Below are positions 3,648 through 36,390 of a stretch of DNA of 44,680 nucleotides, in pieces. The position numbers and the translations under genes were made by a program. The DNA is from Armatimonadota bacterium. Lineage in GTDB: Bacteria; Armatimonadota; UBA5829; DTLH01. The first letter of the stretch is position 1. Each line of letters opens with the position of its first letter. The DNA is taken from assembly GCA_038207085.1 (NCBI GenBank), contig JBBRAE010000024.1, positions 1-44,680 of the forward strand, read 5' to 3'. A model generated the notes under the pieces. It saw only the letters and a program-made list of their open reading frames with translations. It was not told the DNA's origin and searched no databases.

Positions 3648-4223
3648 ATGAGGATGAAGATTCTTGCCGGCGCTGCGCTGGCAGTGATTATGGCAGCCGG
3701 CGCGGCTAACTGCGCCCCGATTCTGCCATCGACAGGCCTTGCGTTTGACGCAGGGGCGTTTCGCCCGTCTGACTCAACAACCCGCGACGCGCTCGGCGAG
3801 ACATGGATCGGCGGACAGGTAAGCTACAGGCAGAAGCAGGTCGGGCCGATCTCAACCGACCTTTCGATCGGCTACTACAAAGCCGGCGGCAGATCGTTTG
3901 CCAACAGGGTGTCTGACGACACTGTCGACACCAGCGGATACGTCATCCCGATGGTCTACCGCACCAAGACAACCGTTCCGCTGACCGGTATGTACTACGG
4001 CGGCGGAGTCGGCGCATATTATGCCAACGTCGAAGGAATCGACGGCGACGGGGTGATTACCCCTGGAGCAAGCGAGAGCGGCACCAAGTTCGGATGGGAG
4101 CTTTTCGGCGGGATGAAGCTGATGGGCCCCTTGAGCGCAGAGCTCGGCTACAGAAACGTCCGTGGAGACGTGGCAGGAATGGATCTGAGCGGTTTCACGC
4201 TCACGGTGAAGGGTAAGTTCTAG
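3648..4223 (+). CDS. Small outer-membrane beta-barrel protein (OmpA/OmpW-like 8-strand)
   Basis: Signal peptide, YYGGGVGAYY strand, alternating hydrophobic strands, C-terminal Phe; SD AAGGAGG. Confidence 0.75.
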   Translation: MRMKILAGAALAVIMAAGAANCAPILPSTGLAFDAGAFRPSDSTTRDALGETWIGGQVSYRQKQVGPISTDLSIGYYKAGGRSFANRVSDDTVDTSGYVIPMVYRTKTTVPLTGMYYGGGVGAYYANVEGIDGDGVITPGASESGTKFGWELFGGMKLMGPLSAELGYRNVRGDVAGMDLSGFTLTVKGKF

Positions 4224-4244
4224 AATAACAGATGTTTCGGATTG

Positions 4245-4276
4245 TGGCCCGATGGAGAAATCCGTCGGGCCATTTT
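4245..4276. terminator. Hairpin terminator between convergent genes
   Basis: TGGCCCGATGGA-gaaa-TCCGTCGGGCCA then TTTT. Confidence 0.7.
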
Positions 4277-4277
4277 G

Positions 4278-5360
4278 CTAAGTCCACTCACAACGTTGCT
4301 TCAGCCCATTGAGATGAGTTCGCGGAAGCTTGCCATCATGCTGAAGCCTTCCAACGACGATGCCGGGAGCAACGCCTACTTCCTTCGCGAACTGCCTTAC
4401 CCTGAGTTCACTTAGCACACTGCCCACTGCAAACGGTTCATACCTGGACTTCGGAATCAGCAGATCGGCCGCAAACAGATCAGCCTCGACCTCCGTGTCT
4501 CCGTGATCATCATTTGACTCAATGAACAGCCTGCTCTTGCCGTGCAGTAAAATATGCCCCGCCTCGTGAAAGAACGTAAACCAGAGGTGGTCGTTGGTCT
4601 TGTATCTCAGACTAAGTTGAATTATCGCCTTGTGCTGAGTAGGCCACCGAGTAGCACCACACACCCTTGTGCCGGGCAACTCCGGCACAAAAGCCACCGC
4701 CACCCCCGCCTCAGCAAACATCTGAACCAGCTTTGTCGTAAAATACTTCACCGGTTCGACGGTCAATGATCTGGCGTTCTTCAGCGCAGCCTTGAACGCT
4801 TTCTTATCATAGGTAAGGCACTCAATTGACTGGGCCACAATTTCACCTCGTCGAAGCCACGCCGCCACAGCACCAGGATTGCACTCGAAGGCCTTCGAGC
4901 GTCTGAAGGCAACATGCTCCCCACGCCAGATATCCTCCCAAGCGCCCGGAGTGGCAACACCAAAGTACCGAAGCACCTCATCCAGCTGCTCCACCTTGTC
5001 CTGAAACCGCCTGATCCACCCGAGGTCGCACATGGCCTTGATTGGAACCGTCTTCAGCCATTCAACATCATTTCGCAGCCTGGCTTGCTCCTCAAGCCTT
5101 GCCAGTGACTCGCGGTAATGCCGCTCACGATTCATCCAGAAAGATGCGGGTGTGCCAAGCACTTTCTCCAGCTGCAGCGCCGTTTCCGGCGTGATCGCAG
5201 CCTTTCCTTTGATGATCTCACTGATGGTCTTGGTCGGTCTGCCGGTGCGCTCAGCGAGCTCGACTTGTGACATGTCGAGGGCCTCAATGGTCTCAAGAAG
5301 CGTCTCTCCTGGAGGGGAGACATAATCCGGTATATATCTATTCTCGATTGTGTCAACCAT
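4278..5360 (-). CDS. higA: HigA-family antitoxin: XRE HTH fused to ImmA/IrrE-type metallopeptidase
   Basis: PPGETLLE..MSQVELAERTGRP..TISEIIKGKAAITPETALQLE HTH; WFTFFHEAGH (HExxH) and EVEADLFA. Confidence 0.88.
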   Translation of the reverse strand: MVDTIENRYIPDYVSPPGETLLETIEALDMSQVELAERTGRPTKTISEIIKGKAAITPETALQLEKVLGTPASFWMNRERHYRESLARLEEQARLRNDVEWLKTVPIKAMCDLGWIRRFQDKVEQLDEVLRYFGVATPGAWEDIWRGEHVAFRRSKAFECNPGAVAAWLRRGEIVAQSIECLTYDKKAFKAALKNARSLTVEPVKYFTTKLVQMFAEAGVAVAFVPELPGTRVCGATRWPTQHKAIIQLSLRYKTNDHLWFTFFHEAGHILLHGKSRLFIESNDDHGDTEVEADLFAADLLIPKSRYEPFAVGSVLSELRVRQFAKEVGVAPGIVVGRLQHDGKLPRTHLNGLKQRCEWT

Positions 5361-5691
5361 GTGTGTCCTCTATATCTACGATCTTGACTGCAGTCACTCC
5401 AGCCCAATCAAGCCCACCTTCGGGCCTGACGGGAACCGGATCGTTCGCGACTACAAAGAGCAACCTGTAGGGATGGTCAAGATCAATCGAAAGCTGCCCT
5501 GCGCGGTCCCCTTTCAGCTCGTGGCATCGAGCTGGTGGGAGTCTGGAGATATCCTCAAGGCTATCAGCAGCCCGAAGGTCGTCGAGACGCCGTCCAAGAA
5601 GCTCCGCTTGCTTGTCACCCAACTCGCGCTGACGCAGAACTGCACTGTTGCAAAACTTCTCCAGTTTACTTGTCCTGAATATTATATCCAT
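5353..5691 (-). CDS. higB: HigB-like (RelE-family) killer toxin
   Basis: MDIIFRTSKLEK, CHELKGDRAGQLSIDLDHPYRLLF, IVDIEDTH; overlaps antitoxin start; toxin-first order. Confidence 0.88.
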   Translation of the reverse strand: MDIIFRTSKLEKFCNSAVLRQRELGDKQAELLGRRLDDLRAADSLEDISRLPPARCHELKGDRAGQLSIDLDHPYRLLFVVANDPVPVRPEGGLDWAGVTAVKIVDIEDTHG

Positions 5692-5710
5692 ATCCCACCG
5701 GCATGTAAAC

Positions 5711-5741
5711 AATATTATTAACCCTTAGGGTTAATAATATT
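5711..5741. promoter_or_regulatory. Perfect 15-bp-arm palindrome, probable HigA autoregulatory operator
   Basis: AATATTATTAACCCT-T-AGGGTTAATAATATT, 20 nt upstream of the higB ATG. Confidence 0.75.
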
Positions 5742-5815
5742 ACCTATAACCCAAGAATTGCTCTTTCACATCATCATAGCACACAACCAGCCAGGGAAGA
5801 CAAGTAGGTGGTCCA

Positions 5816-6268
5816 TTACTGGCAGACCGCGCTGATCGCGCGTGCGAGCCCCTCAGGCGTCAACGATGAGACCGACTTTCCTCCCGTCCACACCTCAAGA
5901 TGCAGGTGGGGGTCGCGCAGTTTGCGGTCTACCCAGCCGATCACCTCGCCCGCACGCACCCGACTTCCTAGCGCGATGCACTCTCTTATATGAATGTGAG
6001 CGTGTACGGTCGTCGTGCCACACCCTGCGATGTAGAGGCAGGAGAATCGGCCGCCACGGTCGGCGATTCGACTGATTTGCCCATCGTGCATCGCACGCAC
6101 CGGCTCACCCGCCGGGACGAAGATGTCGAGCGCGTCGCCTACCCCCGGGCGACTGTACCCGAGCACTACGTTGTGCCCGGGCACGTCACCCCTTCGGTGG
6201 ACGCTTCTGCCGTGAAGCGTCCGGTTGTACCTGCGGCCAAGTATTCCCCCAGATATTGGGCTTTCCAT
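5816..6268 (-). CDS. M23-family peptidase, putative endolysin (start trimmed to ATG 6268)
   Basis: LDIFVPAGEPVRAMHDG, TTVHAHI, VRAGEVIGWV, PHLHLEV (HxH); starts 1 nt after the holin stop; no signal peptide. Confidence 0.8.
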   Translation of the reverse strand: MESPISGGILGRRYNRTLHGRSVHRRGDVPGHNVVLGYSRPGVGDALDIFVPAGEPVRAMHDGQISRIADRGGRFSCLYIAGCGTTTVHAHIHIRECIALGSRVRAGEVIGWVDRKLRDPHLHLEVWTGGKSVSSLTPEGLARAISAVCQ

Positions 6269-6269
6269 A

Positions 6270-6590
6270 CTATTTCCTCTTCCAGCTCTGGTAGACGAAC
6301 TCGACCAGCAGGTTGGCAACGCTTTGGGGGACGGCAAAGCCGAACTCACGCTCCGACAGCCGCACGAGGTAGCCGACCGCCTCGACTCGCCGCTCACCGG
6401 GGGACATTTCGCCCAGGCGCGCGGCGTAGTCGATCGCGTCCCCCACTCTTTCCCGCCCGATTCGTGAAAGCCAACGCCTTGCCCACTTCGGCAGCCGCTC
6501 GCGGCTCTGCAGATAACTCAGCACAAACCCCGCGACGCCGATTGCGCACGCGAGCCAGTCGCCGTGCGACACGTTTCCTAGTTCTATCAA
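6270..6590 (-). CDS. Phage holin, LL-H-like (TTG start 6590)
   Basis: One N-terminal TM segment, then AIDYA..GERRVEA..LLVEFV pattern like LL-H holins; SD GGAGGT; directly upstream of the M23 gene. Confidence 0.65.
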   Translation of the reverse strand: MIELGNVSHGDWLACAIGVAGFVLSYLQSRERLPKWARRWLSRIGRERVGDAIDYAARLGEMSPGERRVEAVGYLVRLSEREFGFAVPQSVANLLVEFVYQSWKRK

Positions 6591-6591
6591 T

Positions 6592-6819
6592 TTATCCACC
6601 TCCAAATATGTGGGCGACAAACGCCCCGATCGCCGCTGTTGTGATGAACCCCGCAAGCCACTGCATGCTGTGCTGTCCGCGCTCAAGCACGCATATCCGC
6701 TGGCAGTGCTCGACGATCCCTGAGGGCACGTGCTTGCGGATCACTCCGATCTCCTCAAGGATCGTCTCAAGCTTGCTCTCGATCACCGCCAGGCGCTCCC
6801 CGACATCGATCTCTCTCAT
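6592..6819 (-). CDS. Small coiled-coil protein with C-terminal TM (XhlA-like lysis-cassette protein)
   Basis: ERLAVIESKLE..RICVLER then hydrophobic WLAGFITTAAIGAFVAHIF; position before the holin. Confidence 0.6.
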   Translation of the reverse strand: MREIDVGERLAVIESKLETILEEIGVIRKHVPSGIVEHCQRICVLERGQHSMQWLAGFITTAAIGAFVAHIFGGG

Positions 6820-6830
6820 AAACTCCTCCG

Positions 6831-7136
6831 TTACGCCGAGATGATCGCCGTTTTAGCCGTCGCAATCCCTTGAAACCGCTCCGTCCACACCTTGCGCACG
6901 TGGTAGGTGCGCCCATCGCGGACTATGGTGTTGTCGAGCGCGATCGGGGTGCTCTGGAGCGTGATCAGAAACAGCGCGGGCTTGGCGACGGCCATTATCT
7001 CGGTATCGTCGAGGTAGTTTCGCATGGTCCCTGAGTCCAGCATACGAAAGAACCCCTTGGCGGCGGTCGTCCCGTTCAAGAGAAACGACTCGCCGTGCTT
7101 GTTGATCTTCTTTTCGATGCGCGATAGCACACTCAT
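6831..7136 (-). CDS. Putative head-closure (stopper; gpFII/SPP1 gp16-like) protein
   Basis: ~100 aa beta-rich; NTIVRDGRTYHVRKV C-terminal pattern; follows adaptor. Confidence 0.6.
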   Translation of the reverse strand: MSVLSRIEKKINKHGESFLLNGTTAAKGFFRMLDSGTMRNYLDDTEIMAVAKPALFLITLQSTPIALDNTIVRDGRTYHVRKVWTERFQGIATAKTAIISA

Positions 7137-7139
7137 CGC

Positions 7140-7571
7140 CTAGATCACCCCCTCTGAGTTGAACGTAAGCTGGCAGTCGCGGGTGGTGCTCTGGATAGCG
7201 CTTTCGCGCATCATCGGCTGCACGCTTTTCTGGAACGCCGCGAGCCGGGTCGTCCCCTGCAGAACAAGCGACGGCCCCCGCTCTTTCATCTCGCCGACAG
7301 TCACGCCGCCGACCGAAAAATCTTCGAGGTTCCCGAACTCCCGCGCCAGCTGCTGCAGGAACTCGCCCGAGATCAGCTCCAGCACCCCAAGCTTGAGCGC
7401 CGCCTGCAGTCCGACATTTCCCGTGTCGGTGAGATAAGCGTCGACGATCGAGAACTCGACCGCGGTCTGCATCTCAGAGATGAGCGAGTCGATCATCGTG
7501 TCGTAACCCGTCTCAGAGGTAGGAATCATAGCCTTGCGCTTCACATCAGCGCGGGTGATTGTGATTGCCAT
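7140..7571 (-). CDS. Putative head-tail adaptor/connector (HK97 gp6/SPP1 gp15-like)
   Basis: ITRADVKR..YDTMIDSLI..AVE and ALKLGVLELI helical pattern; immediately downstream of MCP. Confidence 0.65.
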   Translation of the reverse strand: MAITITRADVKRKAMIPTSETGYDTMIDSLISEMQTAVEFSIVDAYLTDTGNVGLQAALKLGVLELISGEFLQQLAREFGNLEDFSVGGVTVGEMKERGPSLVLQGTTRLAAFQKSVQPMMRESAIQSTTRDCQLTFNSEGVI

Positions 7572-7593
7572 AGTTGGACTCCTTTCGTGGTGT

Positions 7594-7650
7594 TAGTGGC
7601 TAGTCGCTGGTTTGGGACTGGCGACTAGCCACTGACGACTAGCGACTAGC
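7594..7650. repeat. Inverted heptamer (CTAG-core) tandem tracts
   Basis: TAGTGGC TAGTCGC ... GCGACTA GCCACTG ACGACTA GCGACTA; arms match 33606-33618 and 34002-34014. Confidence 0.7.
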
Positions 7651-7726
7651 CCGCTTTATTCGTGAAGCGAATAAAGCTCTCGCTAGCAAAGCATTATTCA
7701 CGCTCCTCGTGAATAATGCAGGCTAT
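7646..7726. mobile_element. MITE family A, copy 2 (inverted relative to copy 1)
   Basis: 7646-7722 is the exact reverse complement of 1417-1493 (77 nt). Confidence 0.85.
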
Positions 7727-7732
7727 CCCCCA

Positions 7733-8647
7733 TTAGCCTACTTTGCTGCCAAACGCCGTCTGCCAGAGTCCGTAGCCTGCGTTGTAGCGGGCTCGGACGC
7801 CGTAGACGTACTGGTCGCGCATAAAGCCGGTCTCGCTTGTGCCCTCAAGGGCTGCGAAGTCGAGCGGCACGCGGCTCTGGAAGATCATCGGACGGACGAT
7901 CCACTTGCTTGCGAGGAGAAACCAGTCGTTTGAGTCCGTGAGATACGGGCTTACGACCAGGTCAAGCCGTCCTTTGAGCGGGTTCGCCGAGAGCTTCTGC
8001 GAGCCTGCGCCTGCGGCGACGAGCTCGGGGTAGTAGGTGGAGTTCAGCAGTTCGAGCGCCGTCCACTGGAGGTCCGGCGGGACGACGAGCACGTCCGGGA
8101 CGATGCCCAGCACCTTGCCGCGGTCGTCCTTGAACTTCATCATCGCGGTGATCGCCGTCTCAAGCGAGGTCGAGGAGAGCGCATCGGTCCCCCTGTTGCT
8201 CTGCGTGCCGGAGTCGCCCTCGGCGTGGTCGGTATCGAAGAAATACTGACCGTCGTGGCAGTTCGATGTGAACCCACCGGCGAGCAGCGAGAATACGAGC
8301 TCGTCGATATGTCTTTTCGACTCGCGAGCGAGCCCCTGAACTCTGAGCTTGATCTGGCCGTAGAGGTCGTCTTCGATCGCCGCGCGCTCCACTGCGACCG
8401 AGGCCTCCCAGGTCTTGTTCTTGATCGCATAATTGTGCTCAAGGAGCCCTGCGGGGAGCCTTTCGTCCTTGAACTCGCGCATCTTGGGCACGCTTCCAAG
8501 CCATGCGTAGGTTTCGGTGTCCTGCTCGCTCGGGACGACGGTCGAGATCTTCTCCCAATCGCCGACCGAAGCGTCATAAGCCTCGAAAAAGACCGTCTTC
8601 AGCCCGGCCTCAAGCAGTTTCGGAACGTCTGATTTTACAAGTGACAT
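7733..8647 (-). CDS. Major capsid protein, Mu gpT family (start trimmed to ATG 8647)
   Basis: ETYAWLGSVPKMRE, YAIKNKTWEASVAVERAAIEDD, DGQYFFDTDH, LVVPPDL, YGVRARYNAGYGLWQ; SD AAGGAG. Confidence 0.92.
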   Translation of the reverse strand: MSLVKSDVPKLLEAGLKTVFFEAYDASVGDWEKISTVVPSEQDTETYAWLGSVPKMREFKDERLPAGLLEHNYAIKNKTWEASVAVERAAIEDDLYGQIKLRVQGLARESKRHIDELVFSLLAGGFTSNCHDGQYFFDTDHAEGDSGTQSNRGTDALSSTSLETAITAMMKFKDDRGKVLGIVPDVLVVPPDLQWTALELLNSTYYPELVAAGAGSQKLSANPLKGRLDLVVSPYLTDSNDWFLLASKWIVRPMIFQSRVPLDFAALEGTSETGFMRDQYVYGVRARYNAGYGLWQTAFGSKVG

Positions 8648-8687
8648 AATAGATTTTCTCCTTTGGATTGTGTAGAGTAGCGGGCGA

Positions 8688-8826
8688 TGTTGGCCTGGAT
8701 CTGTGATCCGGGCCTTCTTGGCAAACAAGGGATCTGTGATCCCGGTCTTTCGATGACATCCGATCAACCGGCATCACAGATGCCTATTTGGCCCATGCGT
8801 CCCGGATTGCAAATCCGGACGAACGA
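8688..8826. repeat. Cluster of REP-like palindromes between decoration and capsid genes
   Basis: GGATCTGTGATCC twice, GGCATCACAGATGCC, and CCGGATTGCAAATCCGG (similar to GGGATTTGCAATCCC at ~31583). Confidence 0.55.
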
Positions 8827-8838
8827 AACCCCCATCCC

Positions 8839-9255
8839 CTAGCTCGCGTAGCGGTCGATTTTCACCCTGACGGTATTCGCATCGATCGACTCAACGCAGA
8901 TACCGGCCTTGAGGTTGTTGCTTGTAGCCGCGTCTGTGATGGTCTGGTTGTCGACGACCTTGAACTCGACTCCGACGTCGGTCTGCGCCCCGTTTCCGCC
9001 TCCGTCGACGAATACGAAGGTGCCTCGGTTCTCAACTCTGATCTCTTTGTCGCCCGCCGAGCCTGTCGAGTTGTCGACGGTCTCATAGGCGACCCCCGCG
9101 AACGTCTCACTCGCCGCATCGGTCGCGTTGGTCGCGAACCCCGCGGCGTTGATGTTCACGAGCGCCCCCTTGGGGATCTTGACGGCGGCCATCTTGTAAC
9201 TGATAAGCTCACCGTCCTTGCGTTTGGATTCTCTTGCGTTTGTGGTTGCTGTCAT
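8839..9255 (-). CDS. Capsid decoration/cement protein (start trimmed to ATG 9255)
   Basis: AAVKIPKGALVNINAAGFA, FAGVA.E.VDNS.G.AGD, TDVG..DNQT pattern of genes adjacent to Mu-type MCPs; SD GAAAGGAG. Confidence 0.78.
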   Translation of the reverse strand: MTATTNARESKRKDGELISYKMAAVKIPKGALVNINAAGFATNATDAASETFAGVAYETVDNSTGSAGDKEIRVENRGTFVFVDGGGNGAQTDVGVEFKVVDNQTITDAATSNNLKAGICVESIDANTVRVKIDRYAS

Positions 9256-9277
9256 GGTATGCTCCTTTCGAGTGTAT

Positions 9278-9331
9278 AGCTGACAGCTTTCAGCAGTCAG
9301 CTTTTGGAGTGCGGCGCGCAAGCGCCACTTT
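9278..9331. repeat. Heptamer remnant plus REP-like palindrome
   Basis: AGCTGAC AGCTTTC AGCAGTC AGC, then TTGGAGTGCGGCGCGCAAGCGCCACTTT. Confidence 0.5.
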
Positions 9332-9493
9332 CTCATTAGTGACAATCCAGTTGATCGCCAATTATCTGCCATTCTTCATAGCCCGAGCAATCGCCTGCCG
9401 TCAAACTCAAAACTCGTGACTCTCTCAAGTTCCCCTCCAAACGTGGCATAATCTAGAATGGCAACCACAGAGTTGCGCGAGGAGGTGAGCAGT

Positions 9494-10438
9494 TTGAAAC
9501 GATCGTCCGATACTGCTTCGATAAGAGACCGGAAGCTCGACGTTGAGCCGGTGCTCGAACAGCTTTCGCAGATAGTGCAAGTCGACCTGCTCCAGCTGGC
9601 CCAGGACACACTCTCGTCGGCCATCGGAGTGCCCATTCTCTTTGTCGCCCCCGACGGCTCACCGATCACCAAGTCCGACCAAATGGACTCGTTTTGCTGG
9701 CATGTCGCCAAAAAGACCTGCGCACAGGAACCGTGCCGCGACTGCGACAGACTGCAGAACGCGGCGAAGTTTCACTGCCCGATGGATATCCGCGACGTAA
9801 TCCTGCCGATCGAGGCGGGTGATATCGTCGTCGGCTACCTGATCGCCTCACAGGCCGCTTCAGAACGGCTCGATGACGCGACCCCCGCGCTTTCGATGCT
9901 CGCCGCGATGGTCTCCAGGCTCGCAACTGCCGAGCGGGAGAACATCTTCGGTCGCATCCGGGACCCGCTGACAGGCCTTGCAAGCCGGGCGCACTTCTGG
10001 GAGTGCCTCACCCGAGAGCTTGAGGTCGCCGACACCTACCATTATCCCGTTTCAGTGCTCGTGTTCGACCTAGACGACTTCAAGAGCGTCAACAGCGTCT
10101 ACGGGCACGACATGGGCGACCGGGTGCTTAGAACCGTCGGCGAGATACTGCGAAAAGAGATTCGCACAACCGACATAGCCGCGCGTTACAGCGGGGACTC
10201 GTTTCTGGTGATGCTCAGATGCGCCGACCCAATCGGGGCCGAAGCCGTCGCATGGCGGATACTGAACAAGCTCAACGACATAAAACTGACGGCCCGCGGG
10301 CAGCTTGTGCCTGTCGCGGCAAGCGTCGGTATGGTCACATACCCCGCATGCGCCGCTCGCGAGCCTGATGCCATCTTCAAAGAAGCCCTCACCTCGCTCA
10401 CCCAAACACGGGGATGCGAGCTGCGAGTGGCAAGCTAA
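9494..10438 (+). CDS. PocR-sensor + degenerate GGDEF-domain protein (ORF open from 9458; TTG 9494 has SD GGAGGT)
   Basis: PocR-like Cys pattern (FC..C..HCP..LPI..G.VVGYL); DPLTGL, DLDDFKSVN..GH..GD; I-site RTTD; A-site SGDSF. Confidence 0.85.
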   Translation: MKRSSDTASIRDRKLDVEPVLEQLSQIVQVDLLQLAQDTLSSAIGVPILFVAPDGSPITKSDQMDSFCWHVAKKTCAQEPCRDCDRLQNAAKFHCPMDIRDVILPIEAGDIVVGYLIASQAASERLDDATPALSMLAAMVSRLATAERENIFGRIRDPLTGLASRAHFWECLTRELEVADTYHYPVSVLVFDLDDFKSVNSVYGHDMGDRVLRTVGEILRKEIRTTDIAARYSGDSFLVMLRCADPIGAEAVAWRILNKLNDIKLTARGQLVPVAASVGMVTYPACAAREPDAIFKEALTSLTQTRGCELRVAS

Positions 10439-10505
10439 CGACTTCGAACCGGGGGCTCAGGGCCGGGGACCAACATCCCCCTCCCAGAGCCTCCGATCCA
10501 GCACA

Positions 10506-10844
10506 CTACTCCACAAGCGTCACTGACACCTTGAAGTCTCCGGACGACCCGCCGTTGTTCTTCACGGAAAGACGGAACGAAGTCCCAGCGCTAAGCTCGT
10601 AATCGGTCTCGCTGCGCAGCCCGTCCGCGGTCGCTTCACCGAGACTGACGGCCAGGATTTCGGTCCCCAGCGAACCATCCGCCCCGCGCCTCTGGATCGT
10701 CACGTCGCATGCCTGCTCCGCCTCGACCCTGAGGATCAGCTTGCCGACCCACCAGTAACCATCAAGCCAGCTGGAGCATGCCTTGCCACCCGCGGCCAAG
10801 TCGTTCACCACAAGAACGTTTACCAACTCCTGATAACCTCTCAT
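10506..10844 (-). CDS. Hypothetical beta-rich protein within the head module
   Basis: Strong SD AGGAGGTG; co-oriented with head genes; no recognised family. Confidence 0.7.
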   Translation of the reverse strand: MRGYQELVNVLVVNDLAAGGKACSSWLDGYWWVGKLILRVEAEQACDVTIQRRGADGSLGTEILAVSLGEATADGLRSETDYELSAGTSFRLSVKNNGGSSGDFKVSVTLVE

Positions 10845-10870
10845 AGAATCACCTCCTTTCGGTTTGGGGT

Positions 10871-10900
10871 TTCAGATTTGAGATTGCAGATTGCAGATTG
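10871..10900. repeat. Heptamer tandem repeat
   Basis: TTCAGAT TTGAGAT TGCAGAT TGCAGAT TG. Confidence 0.6.
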
Positions 10901-10923
10901 TGTGCAGGCATTGACACCTGCTT

Positions 10924-11292
10924 TTAGCGCCCTTTCTGCCGCGCGACAGCCTCCGGGCTCACCCCGAGCTTCGCGTAGAACTCACGTTCCTCGTCGGTCA
11001 TCTGGGATAGCTCCTTCGCCCCTTCCGCAAGCTCTGAGAACTCGACGACTTTGGGCTGCGACAGAAGGAACTCCGCGAACACCCCCGCGACGGGCTTCTC
11101 GCTTCCGTCGGAGAAGTTCACGACATGCGCCTCCCCGGCGGAAAGGAGCGCCCGCGCAAGGTCCTCGGACGCCGGAACGAGCTTGCCGGCGCGCTTGAGC
11201 GAGTCGATCTGCCCATCCACCTCGCGGGCCCGAAGCTGCCGCTCAAGCTCATCTATCCTCTTTGAAAACTCAACTGATTTTGCCTCTGACAT
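10924..11292 (-). CDS. Putative nested in-frame scaffolding protein
   Basis: Internal GAAGGAGAAGAAGAT-ATG at the protease/coiled-coil boundary. Confidence 0.55.
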   Translation of the reverse strand: MSEAKSVEFSKRIDELERQLRAREVDGQIDSLKRAGKLVPASEDLARALLSAGEAHVVNFSDGSEKPVAGVFAEFLLSQPKVVEFSELAEGAKELSQMTDEEREFYAKLGVSPEAVARQKGR

Positions 11293-11922
11293 ATCTTCTT
11301 CTCCTTCATCTATATCGAACTGAAACTCAACTACGTCTGCCGAAAACACCACCGCTCCCGCCACCCTTGGGGTGCGCACCAGGCTCACTTCGGTAAGCTC
11401 GGACTTGTCGCGTTTGATCGCCGCCGACAGCTTTTTCGCCCCGCATGCGTCCACCAGCGCCCAGGCCGGTGCGGTAAAAGCGAGCCGCCCGAAGAGGTCG
11501 CGGCCTTTGCGCCAGATGCGGGTGACTATACCAAGCTCAAGCGGCGTGTCGGTGTGCTCGATCTTGATCGGCACCGGGCGCTGCCGCTCGACCATACGAT
11601 CAAGGTCCTCTTCGGTCACCTCGATGCCGCGATCGGGATATTCCCCTGCCGTAAACAGCCGCGCCTCCCGCTCGACGACCTCCTCAGTGAGCTTCACACC
11701 GAACTTCCCGGCAGCCTCCGCGATCCGGGACTTGATCGTCTCAAGCTCGGTCACGCTGTAGAACATTGCGTTTCGAGGGATGTGCACCCTCGCCCAAGCC
11801 GCCCGGACCCGCTCGGGGGTATCGATCGGATACCTGTTGTTCACGGGGTCAGCAAACTCGACCTCGCCATACTTTCTCACCCCATCCCTGGGGTCAATGT
11901 CATCTCTTTTTTGAATGTTCAA
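10924..11922 (-). CDS. Prohead protease-scaffold (Mu gpI-like) with N-terminal DUF6582-like domain (TTG start 11922)
   Basis: FADP..RYPIDT.ERVRAAW N-domain; LF.AGEY..VTEEDLDRMV..VPIKIEH..G..KKLS..VSLVRTP protease core; coiled-coil C-terminus; SD AAAGGA. Confidence 0.8.
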   Translation of the reverse strand: MNIQKRDDIDPRDGVRKYGEVEFADPVNNRYPIDTPERVRAAWARVHIPRNAMFYSVTELETIKSRIAEAAGKFGVKLTEEVVEREARLFTAGEYPDRGIEVTEEDLDRMVERQRPVPIKIEHTDTPLELGIVTRIWRKGRDLFGRLAFTAPAWALVDACGAKKLSAAIKRDKSELTEVSLVRTPRVAGAVVFSADVVEFQFDIDEGEEDMSEAKSVEFSKRIDELERQLRAREVDGQIDSLKRAGKLVPASEDLARALLSAGEAHVVNFSDGSEKPVAGVFAEFLLSQPKVVEFSELAEGAKELSQMTDEEREFYAKLGVSPEAVARQKGR

Positions 11923-11953
11923 TGGTGTTCCTTTCGTAAGGGTAGTTTGAGTA

Positions 11954-12090
11954 GAGCGCACGTTTCGAGAGCCTCAACGTGATTGGTTTTGGATTGATCT
12001 ATATGTGAGGGATTGGTGGTAGCGGTACAATCCCTCATATCTCCACCCAAGCCAGACCATATCACCCTGAGGCTCTCGAAGGGTGCGCTC
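11954..12090. repeat. REP doublet/MITE family B, copy 1
   Basis: ~29-bp imperfect terminal inverted repeats GAGCGCAC..TTCGAGAGCCTCA..GTGA; homologous copy 36179-36306; half-site near 1125-1151. Confidence 0.8.
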
Positions 12091-12124
12091 CACTAATCAA
12101 AGGACGTACTACAGACTCCGGAAG

Positions 12125-13309
12125 CTAATCCCCGCACGGAATCTCCAAATACTCCCTGATCCACCCCTCGTCGGGCGCAACGACACCGCCTGAGACAAGC
12201 TTCGTCACCACGTCGGCCAGAAGTGTCAGGTCGCGCTCCCTAAGAGTCCCAAGCGAGAACGTGGGGTAGCTCTCGGTCTTGAAGTTATAATCGACGAGCC
12301 GACGAATCAACTGCTCGCCCATCACCGACTCCTCCAAATCACGCTTGATCTTCTCAAGCGTCATGCGAAGCACGTCCATGTGCACCTTGGCAAGCGCGAA
12401 CGAGCCAAACCGCATCCCCTCGTCGGTCGTCAGCGTCTGCCCGAGGATGGACTTTGCGATCTGCCGGTCGTGATACTCGATCGCCTGGAGGTAGCCAAGT
12501 TCGCCGCCCCTCTGGGCCTCCATAAGCTCGATCTTGATGTCCTGCGGAAGCACAATCGCCGTCTCCTGCTGGATCCGGTCGAGCACCTTCAAAAGGTCGT
12601 CCTGCTGCGATTTCGGCGTGCCCCGGGTATAGCTCCCAAGCACCGTCGGCGCGCCATACTTCTCCAAATAGATATTGTAGAACTTGAGAATCACGTCCTT
12701 GCTCCACCAGTGCCGGTACGCCGAACGCAGGTCGCTTGACCCGTAGGGCGACTCATAGCGCGGCATATAGGTGTAGAGCAAAAACTTCTCCGCCGGGAGC
12801 TTCTTTTCGCGCCCAGGCGACTGATAAAGCCCGGTCATATTCAAAAACTCATCGGTCTCGAACGTAACCGAGGTCGGGTCCTTGCTCTTGATCGAGTCAA
12901 GCCCGATCATCCCCTCAAACGCCCCCCGCTCGATCACCTTGTAGTTGATCTCAGAGATCGAATACCCCTTGGCAACGGCGTCGAGGGTATTGTAGAGCAC
13001 GTCGATCATCGCCCCGCGCATATCGGCCAGGCAGAACTCTACGAACTTCGCGATCCACTGGTCCTCCTTGTGGCTAGACGCCGGAACGACCCTCCACCCC
13101 CGCGAGAGAATCGAGAGTTTCTTGATACTCAGGCACGCCCGCACCTGCGAGTCCCCCTGCATCCGGTCATACACTTCGTAGCCGCGCGAGGCGACCAGGT
13201 CATCGGGATTGGCCGGCCCGATCCGCCCAAACGCCCCCGCGAGCCGGTCGGCGACGGCAGTCTCGACCAGCCTTGGCCGACGAATGATTGATTTCAGCTT
13301 TGTAAGCAT
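12125..13309 (-). CDS. Phage portal protein, DUF935/Mu gp29 family (start trimmed to ATG 13309)
   Basis: YDRM..DSQV, LDAVAKGYSISEI, PYGSSDLR, LEKYGAP, IAKSILGQTLTT, GSFALAKVH; SD AAGGAG. Confidence 0.92.
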   Translation of the reverse strand: MLTKLKSIIRRPRLVETAVADRLAGAFGRIGPANPDDLVASRGYEVYDRMQGDSQVRACLSIKKLSILSRGWRVVPASSHKEDQWIAKFVEFCLADMRGAMIDVLYNTLDAVAKGYSISEINYKVIERGAFEGMIGLDSIKSKDPTSVTFETDEFLNMTGLYQSPGREKKLPAEKFLLYTYMPRYESPYGSSDLRSAYRHWWSKDVILKFYNIYLEKYGAPTVLGSYTRGTPKSQQDDLLKVLDRIQQETAIVLPQDIKIELMEAQRGGELGYLQAIEYHDRQIAKSILGQTLTTDEGMRFGSFALAKVHMDVLRMTLEKIKRDLEESVMGEQLIRRLVDYNFKTESYPTFSLGTLRERDLTLLADVVTKLVSGGVVAPDEGWIREYLEIPCGD

Positions 13310-13346
13310 AGATACTCCTTTCGTAGTTGTGAATATCTGATAGGCA

Positions 13347-13446
13347 TGTTGGTCGGGGGAATCCGTCCCTCGACCCCGTTCCGCTGATTCTGTCCGCCCG
13401 AACATGGACCGGCTAACGCCGTAGGGGCGGACCAGTGTGTCCGCCC
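13347..13446. repeat. REP family C copy plus GTAG-type REP
   Basis: 13347-13398 nearly identical to 39064-39115; GTAGGGGCGGACCAGTGTGTCCGCCC at 13421-13446. Confidence 0.75.
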
Positions 13447-13583
13447 TTCTCTGGGCGTGCGGTAAATACGCCACCAGCCGATAAATCCCCCGTCGCCGGG
13501 GCACGATCCTTCACTATCATTCAAGATGACAGTTTGGCAAGCCCAATCACCCGCGATATCCGCCCGTTCCGCGCCTCCGCGAT

Positions 13584-14897
13584 TCAGGAAACGCTCTGAC
13601 TTGCAACCCGCAATTTACTCCCCGCCAAGAACCTAGCAGGTCCCCCCGCGCTCTTCCCCTGCCACTCAGCAAGCGCGAGCGCGACGACCAGGTCGTCGGT
13701 ATAGCCGCTCCGGGCGTTCATCCGCACGTTCCCCGAGGTCGTAAGCTCATACTCGAAGTACTGAAGCTCGCGGACGAGCTGTTCGTCGTCTGGAATCGCG
13801 GTCTCACCGGCTGAGAGCCGCACGACGAGGTTGTCGATGATCTCGCGCTTACTCGCATTGGTGAAGGCCATCCCCTCGATCGCCATCCCGGCTCCCTTCT
13901 CCCAAACGCAGCGCCGCAGCTGCTCAAGCAGCGGGTCGCCGATCGAGGTCTGATCGGTAAGCACCTCGCTTACCCCGCAGCCGATCAGAATCGACGCCAC
14001 CCGCTCCACCTGCGCCTCCCAGGAAAGCTTGTGGAAGCGGTCCATCGCAACCACCCTGTGAGGCGTCTCCGAGGCATCGAGCACGATCACCGTCGTATAG
14101 TCCGAGTAGCGCGCCCAATCGACCCCCGCGACAAGCCAAGGCTCATCCGACACATAAGTTTCCCGCCCAAGCCCGACCGCACGCTCGATCGTCTCCCAGG
14201 GGAATACCGAGGCCTGATCGTCCAGAAACTCAGCCTCATACTCCACCGAAAACTGCCGGGGAGTGATCACCCCGCGCTGGAACTCGATATACTCCCCGCT
14301 CACAAACGGGTTGGTCCGGGAAGGAAACCTATGGGCAGAATAGCGCCCGTCTCCTCCATTGCCACGAGCAAACGCGCGGTAGAAGTGGTTCTTGCCCCAG
14401 GGCGTCGAGATCATCACGAGCTGCCCATTTCGGTCTGCGAGCATCGGGCTGATCACCTCCTCGACCACCGCGTCCCGAACGTACGCCGCCTCATCGACGA
14501 TCACCCGGTCGGCTGAGTGGCCCCTCAGGTTTCGCCCGTCGTCGTCTGCGGTGCGCGCCGTGATCTCGCTTCGATTGATCCTAAGCCTGGGGAAAGGCGT
14601 CCGGGTCACTTTGGACACCCTGCGAGTGACCGCGCGACCCATCACCAGGCGCTCCACCGTGTCAAAGATCAGGCGGCTCTGGTCGCAGGTCGGAGCGACG
14701 ATCATCTGGGCCGAGCCCGGGCAGGCTAGTGCAAAGGTCGCCGCGTCCACCGCCGCCGCCTCGGTCTTACCCCAGCGACGGCCGCACGCCGCGACCTTCA
14801 CACGCGCATCGTCGACCATCCACTGCTTCTGAGTAGGATGAGGCCGCCAGCCAAAGAACAGGCGGGCCATCCCAAGCCTCGCATCAGCGCTAACCAT
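13584..14897 (-). CDS. terL: Terminase large subunit
   Basis: Walker A GRRWGKT, Walker B VIVDEAAY, coupling motif ISTP, nuclease GVDWA..DYT and DDLVVALALA; all intact. Confidence 0.95.
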   Translation of the reverse strand: MVSADARLGMARLFFGWRPHPTQKQWMVDDARVKVAACGRRWGKTEAAAVDAATFALACPGSAQMIVAPTCDQSRLIFDTVERLVMGRAVTRRVSKVTRTPFPRLRINRSEITARTADDDGRNLRGHSADRVIVDEAAYVRDAVVEEVISPMLADRNGQLVMISTPWGKNHFYRAFARGNGGDGRYSAHRFPSRTNPFVSGEYIEFQRGVITPRQFSVEYEAEFLDDQASVFPWETIERAVGLGRETYVSDEPWLVAGVDWARYSDYTTVIVLDASETPHRVVAMDRFHKLSWEAQVERVASILIGCGVSEVLTDQTSIGDPLLEQLRRCVWEKGAGMAIEGMAFTNASKREIIDNLVVRLSAGETAIPDDEQLVRELQYFEYELTTSGNVRMNARSGYTDDLVVALALAEWQGKSAGGPARFLAGSKLRVASQSVS

Positions 14898-15246
14898 CGG
14901 CGCCCTCCTCGACCGCCCGGGCGATCAGCGCCTCTATCGCATCCTCAGCCCCCTCGACTCTTTCCTGAAAGGCCCCGCTTGCCTTCAGCACATCGAGCGC
15001 CGACTTTTCCGCACCTCCGTCCAGCATCTGATGGAGCCTGCGCGCCGCCTCAAGTGAGGCCCCAGCCGCGATTCTCGAAGCCGCCGCCCGTATCTGGCGT
15101 TCCTCCCCGGCAAGCGCCGCGGCAAACTGCGGCTTCTTCCTCCAGCCGTCTATCGCCTCCTGCGTTACACCGATCTCCCCCGCGACCTCCTCGTCGGTCA
15201 TCCGAAACATCAGGCGCACCGCCCGTTTCTGTTTAGCACTGAGCAT
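14890..15246 (-). CDS. Terminase small subunit (N-terminal HTH; start trimmed to ATG 15246)
   Basis: LSAKQKRA..TDEEVAGEIGVT..IDGWRKKPQF; overlaps terL start; SD GGAGG. Confidence 0.75.
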   Translation of the reverse strand: MLSAKQKRAVRLMFRMTDEEVAGEIGVTQEAIDGWRKKPQFAAALAGEERQIRAAASRIAAGASLEAARRLHQMLDGGAEKSALDVLKASGAFQERVEGAEDAIEALIARAVEEGADG

Positions 15247-15550
15247 CTGTCCCTCCAAAGTTTGTTCTCCATAATTATAAGACAACAACTCGGGCAAAAA
15301 CTGGAATCGCGAGCGTGAAATGATAGGTAAATGTTGTTCATAAATTGCGAACAGGCGGGCGAGCTTGGGCATTGGAGGATTACCCTCAATTAGTTGTCAA
15401 CTCATCGTGAACATTACGTGATCTGTTCACCACTTTGCCCAAATGAGCCCCTGGAAGTGGGACCTGGACGGGGTCAATGTCACAATTGAAGGTTTTCTTC
15501 ACAGGGGTTATTTGTTCAAAATGGGGGTAATGTAAGAAATGCTGGCTTAT

Positions 15551-15566
15551 TGGCACGCTTTATGCA
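15551..15566 (+). promoter_or_regulatory. Sigma54 -24/-12 promoter
   Basis: TGGCACGCTTTATGCA (GG-N10-GC), ~95 nt upstream of PEP-CTERM gene. Confidence 0.7.
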
Positions 15567-15659
15567 CCATACTCGCTAGTGTTTGCGTCTCCGGGGGTAA
15601 CTTTGGGGTCGCTCTTTCCCGATAACATTACTGGGGGTTTCAATACAGGAGGCTAAATA

Positions 15660-16457
15660 ATGAGGCGTGTGTCAATACTGGCTGCGTCGGCGTTTGCGGC
15701 TCTGCTTTTGCAGGGAATGAGCGTCGCCGACACCGCAAGTCCCGTCATCTGGTCGCAGACACCGGACATGGACGGGGGGCTTGCTTACTCGTCTGAGATC
15801 AAGGTGCCATCCACCGTCGCCGGCTGCTGGACATGCGGCGACGTCGACCTTGCCATCTCAAAGATCAAGTGGTGGGGCGCTTACTGGGGCGCCAATCAGG
15901 CCGGGGCCTACGCCGATGACAGCGACAGCTTGCCACTTGTTGCAGAAGGTGGCATTCAGGGGTTCACCGTCAAGCTTTGGACCAACACACCTGCGGGCAC
16001 GGGTGGCATCACCTTCGCCCGTCCCGGCACTACAGTCTGGACTTACGCTGCGACAAGCTTTACCGAATCACTCTACGGCACAACCATAAACAAGAACCGC
16101 AACGTCTACGAGTACTCGGTGGACATCGCCCAGGCGGATCGGTTCGTGCATCAGCAGGGCAGCGGCGCGAGCCAGTACTGGATCTCGATCGTGGCCGATA
16201 TGAGCAATGGCGGCACAGTCGACACCACCCGCCAGTGGGGATGGATGGAGTCGGCAAACTCCCAGTACAACGCACCGGCTGCGGTCCAGGACTACAAGGG
16301 TTCGCTTTGGAAGTCTATCGACAACAACATTTACAGCTCAGACATGAGCTTTGTCATCGAGGACAGCCCTGTCCCCGAGCCAGGCAGCTTCGCATCCCTG
16401 GCGGCAGGACTCGTCGGAATGCTCGGCATCGCATCGGGAATCAGACGACGGAGCTAA
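15660..16457 (+). CDS. PEP-CTERM exosortase-sorted surface protein
   Basis: Signal peptide; C-terminal VPEPGS + TM + RRRS; SD AGGAGG. Confidence 0.9.
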   Translation: MRRVSILAASAFAALLLQGMSVADTASPVIWSQTPDMDGGLAYSSEIKVPSTVAGCWTCGDVDLAISKIKWWGAYWGANQAGAYADDSDSLPLVAEGGIQGFTVKLWTNTPAGTGGITFARPGTTVWTYAATSFTESLYGTTINKNRNVYEYSVDIAQADRFVHQQGSGASQYWISIVADMSNGGTVDTTRQWGWMESANSQYNAPAAVQDYKGSLWKSIDNNIYSSDMSFVIEDSPVPEPGSFASLAAGLVGMLGIASGIRRRS

Positions 16458-16477
16458 CCGTAACTTAGCAGTAATAA

Positions 16478-16513
16478 ACAAAAAGACCCGGCAGCAACGC
16501 CGGGTCTTTTTGT
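16478..16513. terminator. Bidirectional intrinsic terminator
   Basis: AAAAAGACCCGGC-agcaac-GCCGGGTCTTTTT between convergent genes. Confidence 0.88.
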
Positions 16514-16530
16514 GCAAATTGATGATACCC

Positions 16531-16866
16531 CTAACCCCCAAAACTCCCCCGCAGCCGCTCAAGCAGCGCGCGAAGCTCAGAAATCGTCTCCTCATCAGCC
16601 GGAAGACACGCGTCTATTCTCTGGTGCAGCCGTTCGGACATCTCCCGGGCGATCTCTGAGCCTTCCGGGAACCCATACGACCCCGCAGAGCCGATCAGGT
16701 TGTGCAACAGCCTGCGCAGTCGCCGCTCGTTTGGCTGGCTCTTGGGGTTGATCGCGAGCGAGTTGATCGCGCTTTCGAGATCGGCGAGCTTCCCCGGAAC
16801 GCTTGCGAGGTAGATCTTTCGCGCCTCGACCAGCCACTCGACGTTCATCAACGGGTCGTCCATCAC
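16531..16866 (-). CDS. Stand-alone Hpt phosphotransfer protein
   Basis: LHNLIGSAGSYGF (H-x-L-x-G-S motif); coupled to kinase stop. Confidence 0.85.
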   Translation of the reverse strand: MMDDPLMNVEWLVEARKIYLASVPGKLADLESAINSLAINPKSQPNERRLRRLLHNLIGSAGSYGFPEGSEIAREMSERLHQRIDACLPADEETISELRALLERLRGSFGG

Positions 16867-24361: not shown

Positions 24362-24700
24362 TTGGAAGTCACGCCGTTTGAGGTGTCAGTCAATTGGGAA
24401 GGCGAAGAACCTATCATCCACATCCGTGGGGAAATAGACTTCGCGACCGCGCCGGCTCTCAACAAGAGTCTGTCGGAGGTAATCGACCGTGGAGCCCGGC
24501 ACCTTACGCTCGACTTTCAGCAAGTGTCATTCCTTGACAGTGAAGGCCTCAAAGTCATCCTGCAGACCTACAGGCACCTAAGGGCCCGTGAGGGGTCTAT
24601 GACTGTAAAAGGATGCAGCCAGTTTGTAGCCCGAACCTTTGAAATCCTCGGCTTCGACAAATACATCGACATGGACCATGACTCCTGCAAGAACAGTTAA
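24362..24700 (+). CDS. STAS-domain anti-sigma factor antagonist
   Basis: GEIDFATAP, LDFQQVSFLDSEGL. Confidence 0.9.
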   Translation: MEVTPFEVSVNWEGEEPIIHIRGEIDFATAPALNKSLSEVIDRGARHLTLDFQQVSFLDSEGLKVILQTYRHLRAREGSMTVKGCSQFVARTFEILGFDKYIDMDHDSCKNS

Positions 24701-33610: not shown

Positions 33611-33988
33611 CTAGTCGCTAGCTAGAGAGGCTTGGACCGACGTCATCAACCCGTTGAGCATTTTGCCTACCTCGGTGGAGAGCGCCTGCGGCTTTGTGAG
33701 TTGGTCTTTGTTCATAAGACCGACTCGCTCGGCCAAGAGAAGATGAGTCTCAAACTCGCCGAGCGATCCTTTGGAAATGCTGAGGAAGTGTAAAAACTCC
33801 TTCTTGTATCCGCGAGAGTGTCCTTCCGCGATATTCGCAGGCACCGAACAAGCGCACCTCCGAATCTGCGAAACCATCCCAAATAGTTCGTCTTTAGGAA
33901 AGCTACGCGTGATCTCATAGCAAAGCTCAGCTAAATCCATAGACTTCTGCCAAACCACCAGATCCCCGTAATGCCTAACACTCACCAC
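33611..33988 (-). CDS. Four-helix-bundle protein (23S rRNA IVP-like family)
   Basis: DLVVWQKSM, FPKDELFGMVSQIRR, SVPANIAEG, FLSISKGSLGE. Confidence 0.92.
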   Translation of the reverse strand: MVSVRHYGDLVVWQKSMDLAELCYEITRSFPKDELFGMVSQIRRCACSVPANIAEGHSRGYKKEFLHFLSISKGSLGEFETHLLLAERVGLMNKDQLTKPQALSTEVGKMLNGLMTSVQASLASD

Positions 33989-36178: not shown

Positions 36179-36306
36179 GAGCGCACGTTTCGAGAGCCTC
36201 AACGTGATTGGTTTTCTATTGATCTTTAGTTGAGAGATTGGTGGTCGCTCACTCATATATCCACCCACGCCAACCCCTCACCCTGAGGCTCTCGAAGGGT
36301 GCGCTA
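36179..36306. repeat. REP doublet/MITE family B, copy 2
   Basis: Same terminal IRs and internal sequence as 11954-12090. Confidence 0.8.
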
Positions 36307-36390
36307 CACAGATCAAAGGGCCTACTACAACAAAGGAAAGCTAACACAGTCCCCCACAGCAAACACCGCAGGGGACTGCCAGACTTAGGG

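Follow-up and report, generated by a model that had tools for sequence, protein, structure and literature searches.

A 44.7-kb stretch of an Armatimonadota genome (contig JBBRAE010000024.1; hereafter the window) contains, at positions 5816-15246, a compact module of phage-derived genes for assembling heads, packaging DNA and lysing cells. This module is probably what Armatimonadota lineages have retained of a Mu-type tailed phage, domesticated and passed on vertically as a working head, packaging and lysis system, which would make it a viriform resembling gene transfer agents (GTAs). The original prediction, made from the window alone, had likewise proposed a vertically inherited, domesticated packaging system, and the results on relatives, on congruence of gene trees and on selection support that proposal. 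No earlier description of the module was found in literature on Armatimonadota combined with gene transfer agents or with Mu-like capsids and prophages, and literature on tail-less or domesticated systems yielded only the works cited below. The module would represent a GTA-like viriform in a phylum with few cultured members, with a Mu-type instead of an HK97-type head and no tail encoded at its locus.

Distribution and gene content of the module

A scan of species-representative genomes with two family-specific capsid peptide patterns returned 47 loci. Forty-five of them come from 45 different assemblies, with one copy in each and several on complete chromosomes; 37 are titled Armatimonadota, Armatimonadetes or Capsulimonadaceae, and eight are titled "bacterium" only. 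Complete chromosomes and long contigs with the module include OY970325.1, OY760504.1, OZ252240.1, OZ251980.1, OZ255823.1, OZ241338.1 and JBMNES010000001.1. The remaining two loci are short Vibrio contigs with capsids of 38-44% identity. Relatives with the same gene set, as anticipated in the original prediction, are therefore available from 45 genomes, each with one head-only module and no tail family beside it. In database searches, the capsid gave 1333 matches at E <= 1e-20 among 8000 scored candidates. The best 120 of these are 68-88% identical and 293-329 aa long, and all 12 organism-bearing names among them are Armatimonadota. For the large terminase subunit (TerL), the best 120 matches are 54-72% identical, and Armatimonadota account for 12 of 13 organism-bearing names. 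However, a control gpT relative, P0124 (49% identical to the window capsid), has matches of at most 51% from the third on, and its nine organism names cover Bacillota, Planctomycetota, Nitrospirota and Armatimonadota; this is the usual patchy picture of prophage genes, unlike that of the window capsid. By local BLAST, the top representatives of a library clustered at 50% are 40-66% identical to the loci. Among cultured phages, the best capsid match is FP_Mushu (NC_047913.1), with 41% identity over 94% of the query, and no complete tailed phage comes closer than this to the capsid.

Gene calling by open reading frame (ORF) listing, followed by Pfam and PHROGs profile scans of the window ORFs, bore out the gene set and coordinates first proposed. 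The genes described in this section all lie on the minus strand. The small terminase subunit TerS (14890-15246, 118 aa) has an N-terminal helix-turn-helix (HTH) and matches phrog_7344 (E 4e-9) and phrog_2538 (E 1e-8); its ATG is preceded at 5 nt by GGAGG, and it is the least conserved core protein, with 39-55% identity inside the window clade. TerL (13584-14897, 437 aa) combines ATPase and nuclease domains (phrog_2, E 7e-42; PF03237, E 3e-9). Its Walker A motif GRRWGKTE, its DEAA and STP motifs and its nuclease Asp residues are invariant in 17 of 17 aligned orthologues, so that the catalytic motifs are indeed preserved, as had been claimed. The Mu-type portal protein (DUF935; 12125-13309, 394 aa) is recognised by PF06074 Portal_Mu (E 9e-77) and phrog_113 (E 6e-87), and AAGGAG lies 7 nt ahead of its ATG at 13309. 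A head maturation protease-scaffold fusion (10924-11961) matches PF20223 (E 6e-28), a Mu-like_Pro C-terminus (E 4e-7) and phrog_976 (E 1e-15), its N-terminus being a DUF6582 domain. The protease core itself gave no match to Pfam or PHROGs profiles; the protease residues reported as preserved (EH...LS...E.S.V..PR) are retained in at least 90% of 29 sequences. The decoration or virion structural protein (8839-9258, 139 aa; phrog_1731, E 2e-24) occupies the slot between the protease and capsid genes, as does gp30 of FP_Mushu, to which it has a 50% local match. The major capsid protein (7733-8647, 304 aa) belongs to the Mu gpT family (PF10124, E 2e-75; phrog_371, E 8e-81). A strong stem-loop at 7592-7651, built from the inverted repeat I11 (16 nt with 94% complementarity) and from I24, immediately follows the capsid gene, ahead of the adaptor gene, and could be a transcription attenuator or terminator that sets the ratio of capsid to neck proteins.

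For the two neck proteins, AlphaFold (AF2) models were built from alignments of 35 adaptor-like and 32 stopper orthologues. The 101-aa protein encoded at 6831-7136, which has no profile match, gave a model with a pLDDT of 93.8. Its Foldseek matches (probability 0.9-1.0, TM-score 0.4-0.6, E only 1e-2 to 1e-1) include the lambda neck (8k37_M), SPP1 gp16 (2kca, 7z4w), the T1 and R4C stoppers and XkdH of PBSX (3f3b), and the predicted fold supports its assignment as a stopper or head-closure protein of the SPP1 gp16 and lambda FII class. The adaptor-like helical protein (7140-7571, 143 aa), also without a profile match, was modelled at a pLDDT of 79.5. All of its PDB matches have E >= 0.9, with some neck and adaptor chains at E ~1, and the best BFVD matches (E 1e-2) are to unnamed proteins. 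Given these weak fold matches, its label is mainly positional, as the gene occupies a slot equal to that of the FP_Mushu adaptor gp32 and is kept in 38 of the 45 loci. Profile searches of both alignments against the PDB returned nothing below E 0.1.

The module ends in a putative lysis cassette. A small membrane protein resembling XhlA (6592-6819, 75 aa) consists of a coiled coil and a C-terminal transmembrane segment, matches phrog_1193 "hemolysin" at E 1e-3 only, and has homologues in 11 loci. The holin-like protein with one transmembrane segment (6270-6572) has no profile match and an uncertain start, its ORF extending to 6686; a language-model search led to Phage_holin_6_1 (score 0.91), including an Armatimonadota-dominated cluster, and homologues follow the stopper gene in about 20 loci. 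Among the labels first given to the small proteins, head closure is thus upheld by the fold, whereas adaptor, XhlA-like and holin stay tentative. The M23 peptidoglycan endopeptidase (5816-6268; PF01551, E 8e-12, and endolysin PHROGs) is likely the endolysin of the module, judging from its domain; it also scores against a tape-measure PHROG (phrog_10030, E 2e-7), via the M23 domain alone. In addition, an orphan protein of 112 aa (10506-10844) has no Pfam or PHROG match, consistent with its original designation. A homologue was seen in locus L001 only (35% identity), flanked there by the holin-like gene and M23, and a language-model search yielded viral hypothetical clusters and XepA as a weak lead, so a link to lysis is possible.

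The 45 loci were compared by tblastn with the window proteins and by ORF clustering. The common order is TerS, TerL, portal, protease/scaffold, decoration, capsid, adaptor and stopper; a holin-like gene, an XhlA-like gene or both come next, and then a wall hydrolase. The eight core genes stand in the window order in 14 of the 45 loci, or in 15 when L004 is counted, where TerS was recognised by ORF clustering only; most loci without the full core set are truncated by contig ends. In the Capsulimonadaceae-type clade (L032, L034, L036, L038 and L040), the order is decoration, protease, capsid, adaptor, stopper and portal. In-frame stops are rare, occurring in one of 45 capsid matches, two of 45 decoration matches and one of 45 stopper matches. 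The terminal hydrolase holds a fixed position but differs by clade, being M23, Amidase_3, VanY/M15_4, Amidase_2 or NlpC/P60, which points to non-orthologous replacement, as expected for a lysis function in use. Several modules have taken in other genes, including an aquaporin (L005), a GHMP-kinase/nucleotidyltransferase (L014), GNAT genes (four loci) and an insertion sequence (L012), and the modules of the window clade contain a host-type PocR-GGDEF gene. Other host-like genes, such as DUF2961, ParA/ParB, SpoIIE and peroxiredoxin, lie between or beside modules. Conserved small ORFs of about 127, 152 and 80 aa (families F11, F16 and F21; L002:7249-7632, L003:9260-9969 and homologues) are interspersed with the decoration, capsid and adaptor genes of several clades, though not in the window; they have no Pfam or PHROG match and may be further head or neck components.

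Inheritance, selection and regulation

In close genome pairs, the synonymous divergence (dS) of the module equals that of the flanking host genes, according to Nei-Gojobori estimates. For L003/L028, dS is 0.45-0.71 in the module and 0.35-0.50 in three flanking genes, with module dN/dS (omega) of 0.06-0.14. For L024/L025, the module has a dS of 0.23-0.31 and an omega of 0.04-0.09, and the flanking families F22 and F60 have dS values of 0.22 and 0.26. For L032/L034, the portal gene (dS 0.73, omega 0.26) falls within the flank range of 0.62-0.95. Where dS is unsaturated (L003/L028 and L024/L025), module omega is 0.04-0.14, in line with the dN/dS below 1 expected under the original prediction. Comparisons of the window with its nearest relatives show saturated dS, with omega, where defined, of 0.06-0.27. 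Among single genes, omega is 0.06-0.13 for TerL and 0.14-0.27 for the stopper. Trees were obtained by quick IQ-TREE searches with SH-aLRT support only. When the clades of the capsid tree were mapped on the portal tree, five label changes were counted, which is the minimum, and on the TerL tree three, again the minimum; in both cases, none of 200 shuffles was as low. The congruence within the module that had been anticipated is therefore recovered, together with equal dS in module and flanks.

Several observations weigh against a vertically inherited, working system. Support for vertical descent is limited to three close pairs in which the flanks diverge in step with the module, and to the agreement of the module's own gene trees. 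By tblastn, the flanking genes of the window itself lie beside the module in none of the relatives. The portals of L036 and L038, two Capsulimonadaceae chromosomes, are 95% identical, whereas their sole common neighbour family, F68, is only 31% identical, and their neighbourhoods resemble defence or mobile regions (an Eco57I-type methylase and a Prim-Pol+AAA_25 gene about 4 kb past the portal gene at L036:13251-19676; HATPase, DndB, HNH and DUF4007 at L038:13396-19648, both beside the rearranged module). This mismatch suggests some movement or rapid flank turnover. In addition, TerS and TerL are not within reach (10 kb) in eight sufficiently flanked loci, comprising one clade (L011, L012 and L015) and the five loci of the Capsulimonadaceae-type clade, suggesting that the packaging genes are unlinked or lost in those lineages. 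The locus scan counts carriers and not Armatimonadota non-carriers. Against the library clustered at 50%, the capsid matches 6570 clusters at E <= 1e-3, the best at about 52-53% identity, and these relatives form a gapless continuum downward in which no isolated clade stands out. Finally, the absence of tail genes applies to the 44.7-kb window and to at most 10 kb on either side of the capsid gene in relatives.

Conservation extends to a putative promoter. A promoter-like motif, GTTGTCTTATAAT (15274-15286, minus strand), is located 28-40 nt upstream of the TerS ATG in the window, with a perfect -10 element TATAAT at 15279-15274 and no recognisable -35 element; a sigma-70 consensus scan did not pick it up. 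The motif is identical in all five window-clade loci, at -41 to -68 of TerS. The copies in L005 and L045 differ from it at one position and those in L024, L025 and L026 at three, against a background of 0.026 matches per 400 nt. The motif is thus kept across lineages whose synonymous sites are saturated. The combination of a -10 element with no -35 element suggests that this putative promoter depends on an activator.

The original prediction described all module genes as co-oriented, which does not hold, because it omitted a plus-strand gene for a 326-aa protein with a PocR sensor and a GGDEF domain (9458-10438; PF00990, E 1e-32; PF10114, E 8e-14) situated between the orphan and decoration genes. 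Its place and orientation are kept in all five window-clade loci that cover the site (the window, L002, L003, L028 and L037), and its dN/dS is 0.19. Compared with its orthologues, the window protein is about 33 residues shorter in the PocR region. The GGDEF motif is degenerate in all five proteins (SGDSF in the window, and GSDSF, AGDSF, AGDSF and GSGEF), so a role as sensor or receptor is more likely than cyclase activity, and the protein is a candidate local regulator of the module.

Mode of action and competing explanations

If the module acts as a domesticated GTA-like viriform, its expression would begin at the promoter upstream of TerS, probably with the help of an activator and in a subset of cells. 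By homology, the portal protein, protease-scaffold, gpT capsid and decoration protein would assemble procapsids, into which TerS and TerL, the catalytic motifs being intact, would pump DNA. The adaptor-like protein and the gp16/FII-class stopper would then seal the portal, yielding stable DNA-filled heads. Lysis of the producer by the XhlA-like and holin-like proteins and the peptidoglycan hydrolase would free the particles, a step to which both gene content and the non-orthologous replacement of the hydrolase point.

How such heads would reach recipients depends on a tail. As the original prediction had stated, tail, integrase, transposase and replication genes are absent from the 47 window ORFs scanned with Pfam, 17 of which were also scanned with PHROGs. 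The neighbourhoods of the relatives were covered by one representative per ORF family, in an interval that begins 2.5 kb upstream of the core genes and ends 7 kb downstream; after removal of 14 families (antisense shadows of core genes), singletons below 90 aa and minus-strand singletons below 150 aa, 200 ORFs were left. Pfam (E <= 1e-5) found no tail family among these 200 ORFs, and no PHROG of the tail category was matched by 50 neighbouring ORFs, the majority of which have no Pfam match. The presence of tail genes at an unlinked locus is close to an even call, whereas particles that remain tail-less are a doubtful prospect and the capture of free tails from resident phages is somewhat more doubtful still. 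The most far-reaching version, in which carriers have no tail anywhere and a heritable cellular machine loads DNA into Mu-type capsids without tails and sets these free through lysis, is rather unlikely. If true, delivery would proceed by capture of the free tails of unrelated phages, a host-level "tail piracy", or by competent cells taking up capsid-protected DNA, and this would constitute a mode of gene exchange separate from both GTAs and satellites.

Among the alternatives, the one with most in its favour, although not the one preferred, is a complete tailed GTA encoded at several loci. It departs from the preferred reading solely in the tail, in that a tail and baseplate locus elsewhere on the chromosome would supply tails that join the stopper-capped heads. 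The module is already dispersed in places, given the eight loci without nearby terminase genes and the relocation of the portal gene behind the stopper gene in the Capsulimonadaceae clade. In phages, stoppers of the gp16/FII class are the docking point for tails, and the stopper gene here is under purifying selection. There is also a precedent in FpGTA, described as a 10.5-kb head operon with a tail, baseplate and lysis operon 125 kb off (PMC12946183), which makes a distant tail locus a live possibility in Armatimonadota as well. However, no tail gene occurs in the window or within the 10 kb around the capsid gene in 45 genomes, and the lysis genes, which go with the tail genes in the published outline of FpGTA, go with the head genes here. 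A domesticated system with a function other than gene transfer, such as programmed lysis that releases capsid-protected DNA for a biofilm matrix or nutrient sharing, or the production of capsids as decoys for related phages, would account for the lysis cassette at the module end in every clade, for the lack of an encoded delivery device in the scans of neighbouring ORFs, for the signalling gene of cyclic di-GMP type embedded in the window clade and for lineages that may lack linked terminase genes. It is nevertheless improbable, because the invariant motifs and low omega of TerL argue that DNA packaging itself is under selection, and because an adaptor and a stopper are required only for DNA-filled heads.

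A phage satellite of the capsid-forming phage-inducible chromosomal island (cf-PICI) type would excise, replicate, package itself and borrow the tails of a helper. Such elements have the same repertoire of TerS, TerL, portal, protease, capsid, adaptor and connector with no tail (10.1101/2025.02.11.637232), and the Prim-Pol+AAA_25 gene of L036 recalls a replication gene. Nevertheless, Pfam detected no integrase, recombinase, replication module, AlpA or HNH among the 47 window ORFs, and the same holds beside the other loci except L036; lytic genes, which the cf-PICI criteria as set out in that source exclude, are present; the search for att repeats yielded none, host genes are interspersed, and dS matches that of the flanks; and the single copy per genome diverges along with the clades. 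A satellite is therefore very unlikely. An inert, decaying Mu-like prophage remnant that has lost its tail, transposase and regulators is the least credible explanation. Prophage decay commonly ends in fragments with head genes only, and a few in-frame stops occur in the metagenome-assembled genomes. However, eight genes in the same order are retained in up to 45 species, omega is far below 1, the catalytic motifs are invariant and the promoter motif is conserved. Furthermore, the capsid stays at 68-88% identity over more than 120 database clusters, as opposed to the rapid fall-off for the control P0124. From its sequence, the module appears to be neither a cf-PICI nor a decaying prophage, and the domesticated, vertically inherited head, packaging and lysis system remains the preferred reading.

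Such a system would offer a clean case from nature for testing whether DNA packaging by capsids alone can be selected for by a host, and it shows domesticated phage modules fragmenting and absorbing host genes over long times. The large, slowly evolving family of capsid, portal and terminase proteins could also be used to find such systems in metagenomes.

Genomic surroundings and comparison with known systems

On one side, the module is flanked by a transketolase gene, a gene for a porin-like protein and a HigB/HTH-M78 pair, and on the other by genes for a PEP-CTERM protein and two-component regulators. The flanks are thus ordinary host genes, as first described, but the "antitoxin" of the supposed toxin-antitoxin pair (4278-5741, minus strand) is a fusion of HTH_3 with Peptidase_M78 (ImmA/IrrE-type), next to a HigB-like toxin. 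This fusion scores as a transcriptional regulator (phrog_2439, E 3e-32), so that the reported absence of a repressor is less clear-cut for the window. The pair is preceded by a sigma-70 promoter close to consensus (5709-5681) and comes with a perfect palindrome of 15 nt (5711-5741), and its GC content at third codon positions (GC3) of 0.53 and 0.61 is foreign compared with 0.74 in host genes; the module itself, with a GC3 of 0.77, is host-like. The pair was found at none of the 45 relative loci, and it is probably a recent insertion adjoining the module. The window contains no tRNA and no att-type direct repeats bracketing the module beyond matches of 14-20 nt, a size expected by chance, in agreement with the original observation. 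When positions 4000-17000 were compared with Rfam (E <= 0.1), the single match was to isrO, below threshold, and fell on a terminator hairpin at 16480-16518.

The portal and protease genes are separated by a palindromic repeat of about 160 nt (11954-12094; fold -84.6 kcal/mol, z -7.9). This repeat has a second intergenic copy at 36179-36329 (83% identity) and a partial match at 1134-1149, and it looks like a miniature inverted-repeat transposable element (MITE) or a repetitive extragenic palindromic (REP)-type element of this genome. The second copy, outside the module, indicates a genome-wide repeat that landed inside it. The possibility of a module-specific RNA element was rejected on account of this copy and because the portal and protease genes abut in L002 and L037. 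A STAS-domain ORF of the anti-sigma antagonist type occurs at 24362-24700 (plus strand); members of its family also occur in L017, L018 and L024, some 5 kb downstream of the module, which may be coincidence or a trace of old synteny. At 33611-33988 (minus strand), a gene of the 23S rRNA-intervening-sequence or bAvd-like four-helix-bundle type (PF05635, E 2e-38) occurs singly, with a GGDEF-HD-GYP gene on one side and a glycosyltransferase gene on the other; the scanned ORFs nearby include no reverse transcriptase.

The closest phage for comparison, the Mu-like FP_Mushu, shows the same order of TerS, TerL, portal, protease, small structural protein, capsid, adaptor and neck. Its portal is 28% identical to that of the module, and TerL has no tblastn match in it at E <= 1. 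In FP_Mushu, the neck gene is followed by sheath, tube, tape measure and baseplate genes, and the phage further encodes transposase A/B, a repressor, Gam and, between portal and protease, a MuF-like minor head protein, all of which are absent here. Of the features of a Mu-like phage, the module therefore has the gpT capsid and the Mu-type portal; transposase A/B and MuF were not detected in the window with Pfam or PHROGs, and a repressor and a tail are likewise missing from the module. The shared order suggests that the module corresponds to the head genes of a Mu-like myovirus, which break off precisely at the neck and are capped by a lysis cassette. PBSX of Bacillus subtilis is also a phage-derived particle kept by its host, and the fold search with the stopper retrieved its XkdH. 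The PBSX lysis cassette comprises XhlA, a holin, a hydrolase and XepA, and resembles the weak leads obtained for the module, although this likeness is at the level of folds or leads only. However, PBSX has a full contractile tail and is described as acting like a tailocin (PMC12946183).

The cf-PICIs likewise encode TerS, TerL, portal, protease, capsid, adaptor and connector of their own, and their particles are described as tail-less, DNA-filled heads able to take foreign tails (10.1101/2025.02.11.637232). All items of their packaging module are present in the window except HNH, the adaptor assignment being weak. As characterised in that source, cf-PICIs are mobile and self-packaging, with an integrase or recombinase, replication and regulation modules and HNH, and have no lytic genes. 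None of this applies here, as the replication and regulation modules (pri-rep, alpA) are missing, L036 being the only relative with a Prim-Pol+AAA_25 gene nearby, and M23, holin-like and XhlA-like genes end the module.

Judged by its sequence, the module appears to have the genomic hallmarks of a GTA except the tail. Like the GTAs of Alphaproteobacteria (RcGTA/CcGTA), it is made up of structural and lysis genes of phage origin on the chromosome and has no replication, integration or lysogeny modules; no genes for replication, integration or lysogeny control were found in the cluster. Inheritance with the host lineage and purifying selection are also shared, as seen in the flank dS, omega and congruent module trees. 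To our knowledge, all characterised GTAs encode a complete tailed particle, which the locus does not. The alphaproteobacterial GTAs have an HK97-type head and tails, whereas the module has a Mu gpT/DUF935-type head with a decoration protein, encodes no tail at its locus in 45 genomes, and belongs to another phylum. GTA production ends with lysis of the producer (PMC11841831, PMC9632790), and characterised GTAs are few and mostly from Alphaproteobacteria, according to the overview in PMC12946183.

Outside Alphaproteobacteria, FpGTA of Faecalibacterium is reported as an operon of about 10 kb with TerS, TerL, portal, scaffold and capsid genes, near-ubiquitous in one host group and forming particles described as without visible tails (PMC12946183). 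Its likeness to the module lies in gene content as described there rather than in compared sequences, and it differs in having its baseplate, fibre, receptor-binding and lysis genes in a second operon, whereas lysis genes form part of the head module in Armatimonadota. The domesticated Caudovirales-derived loci of Thaumarchaeota, proposed to be GTA-like by their authors, also comprise an apparently functional morphogenesis module reported to be without att sites and replication genes (PMC6563490). However, these are archaeal head-tail elements that, as presented in that report, are few and mutually divergent, whereas the module of Armatimonadota represents one family across many species.

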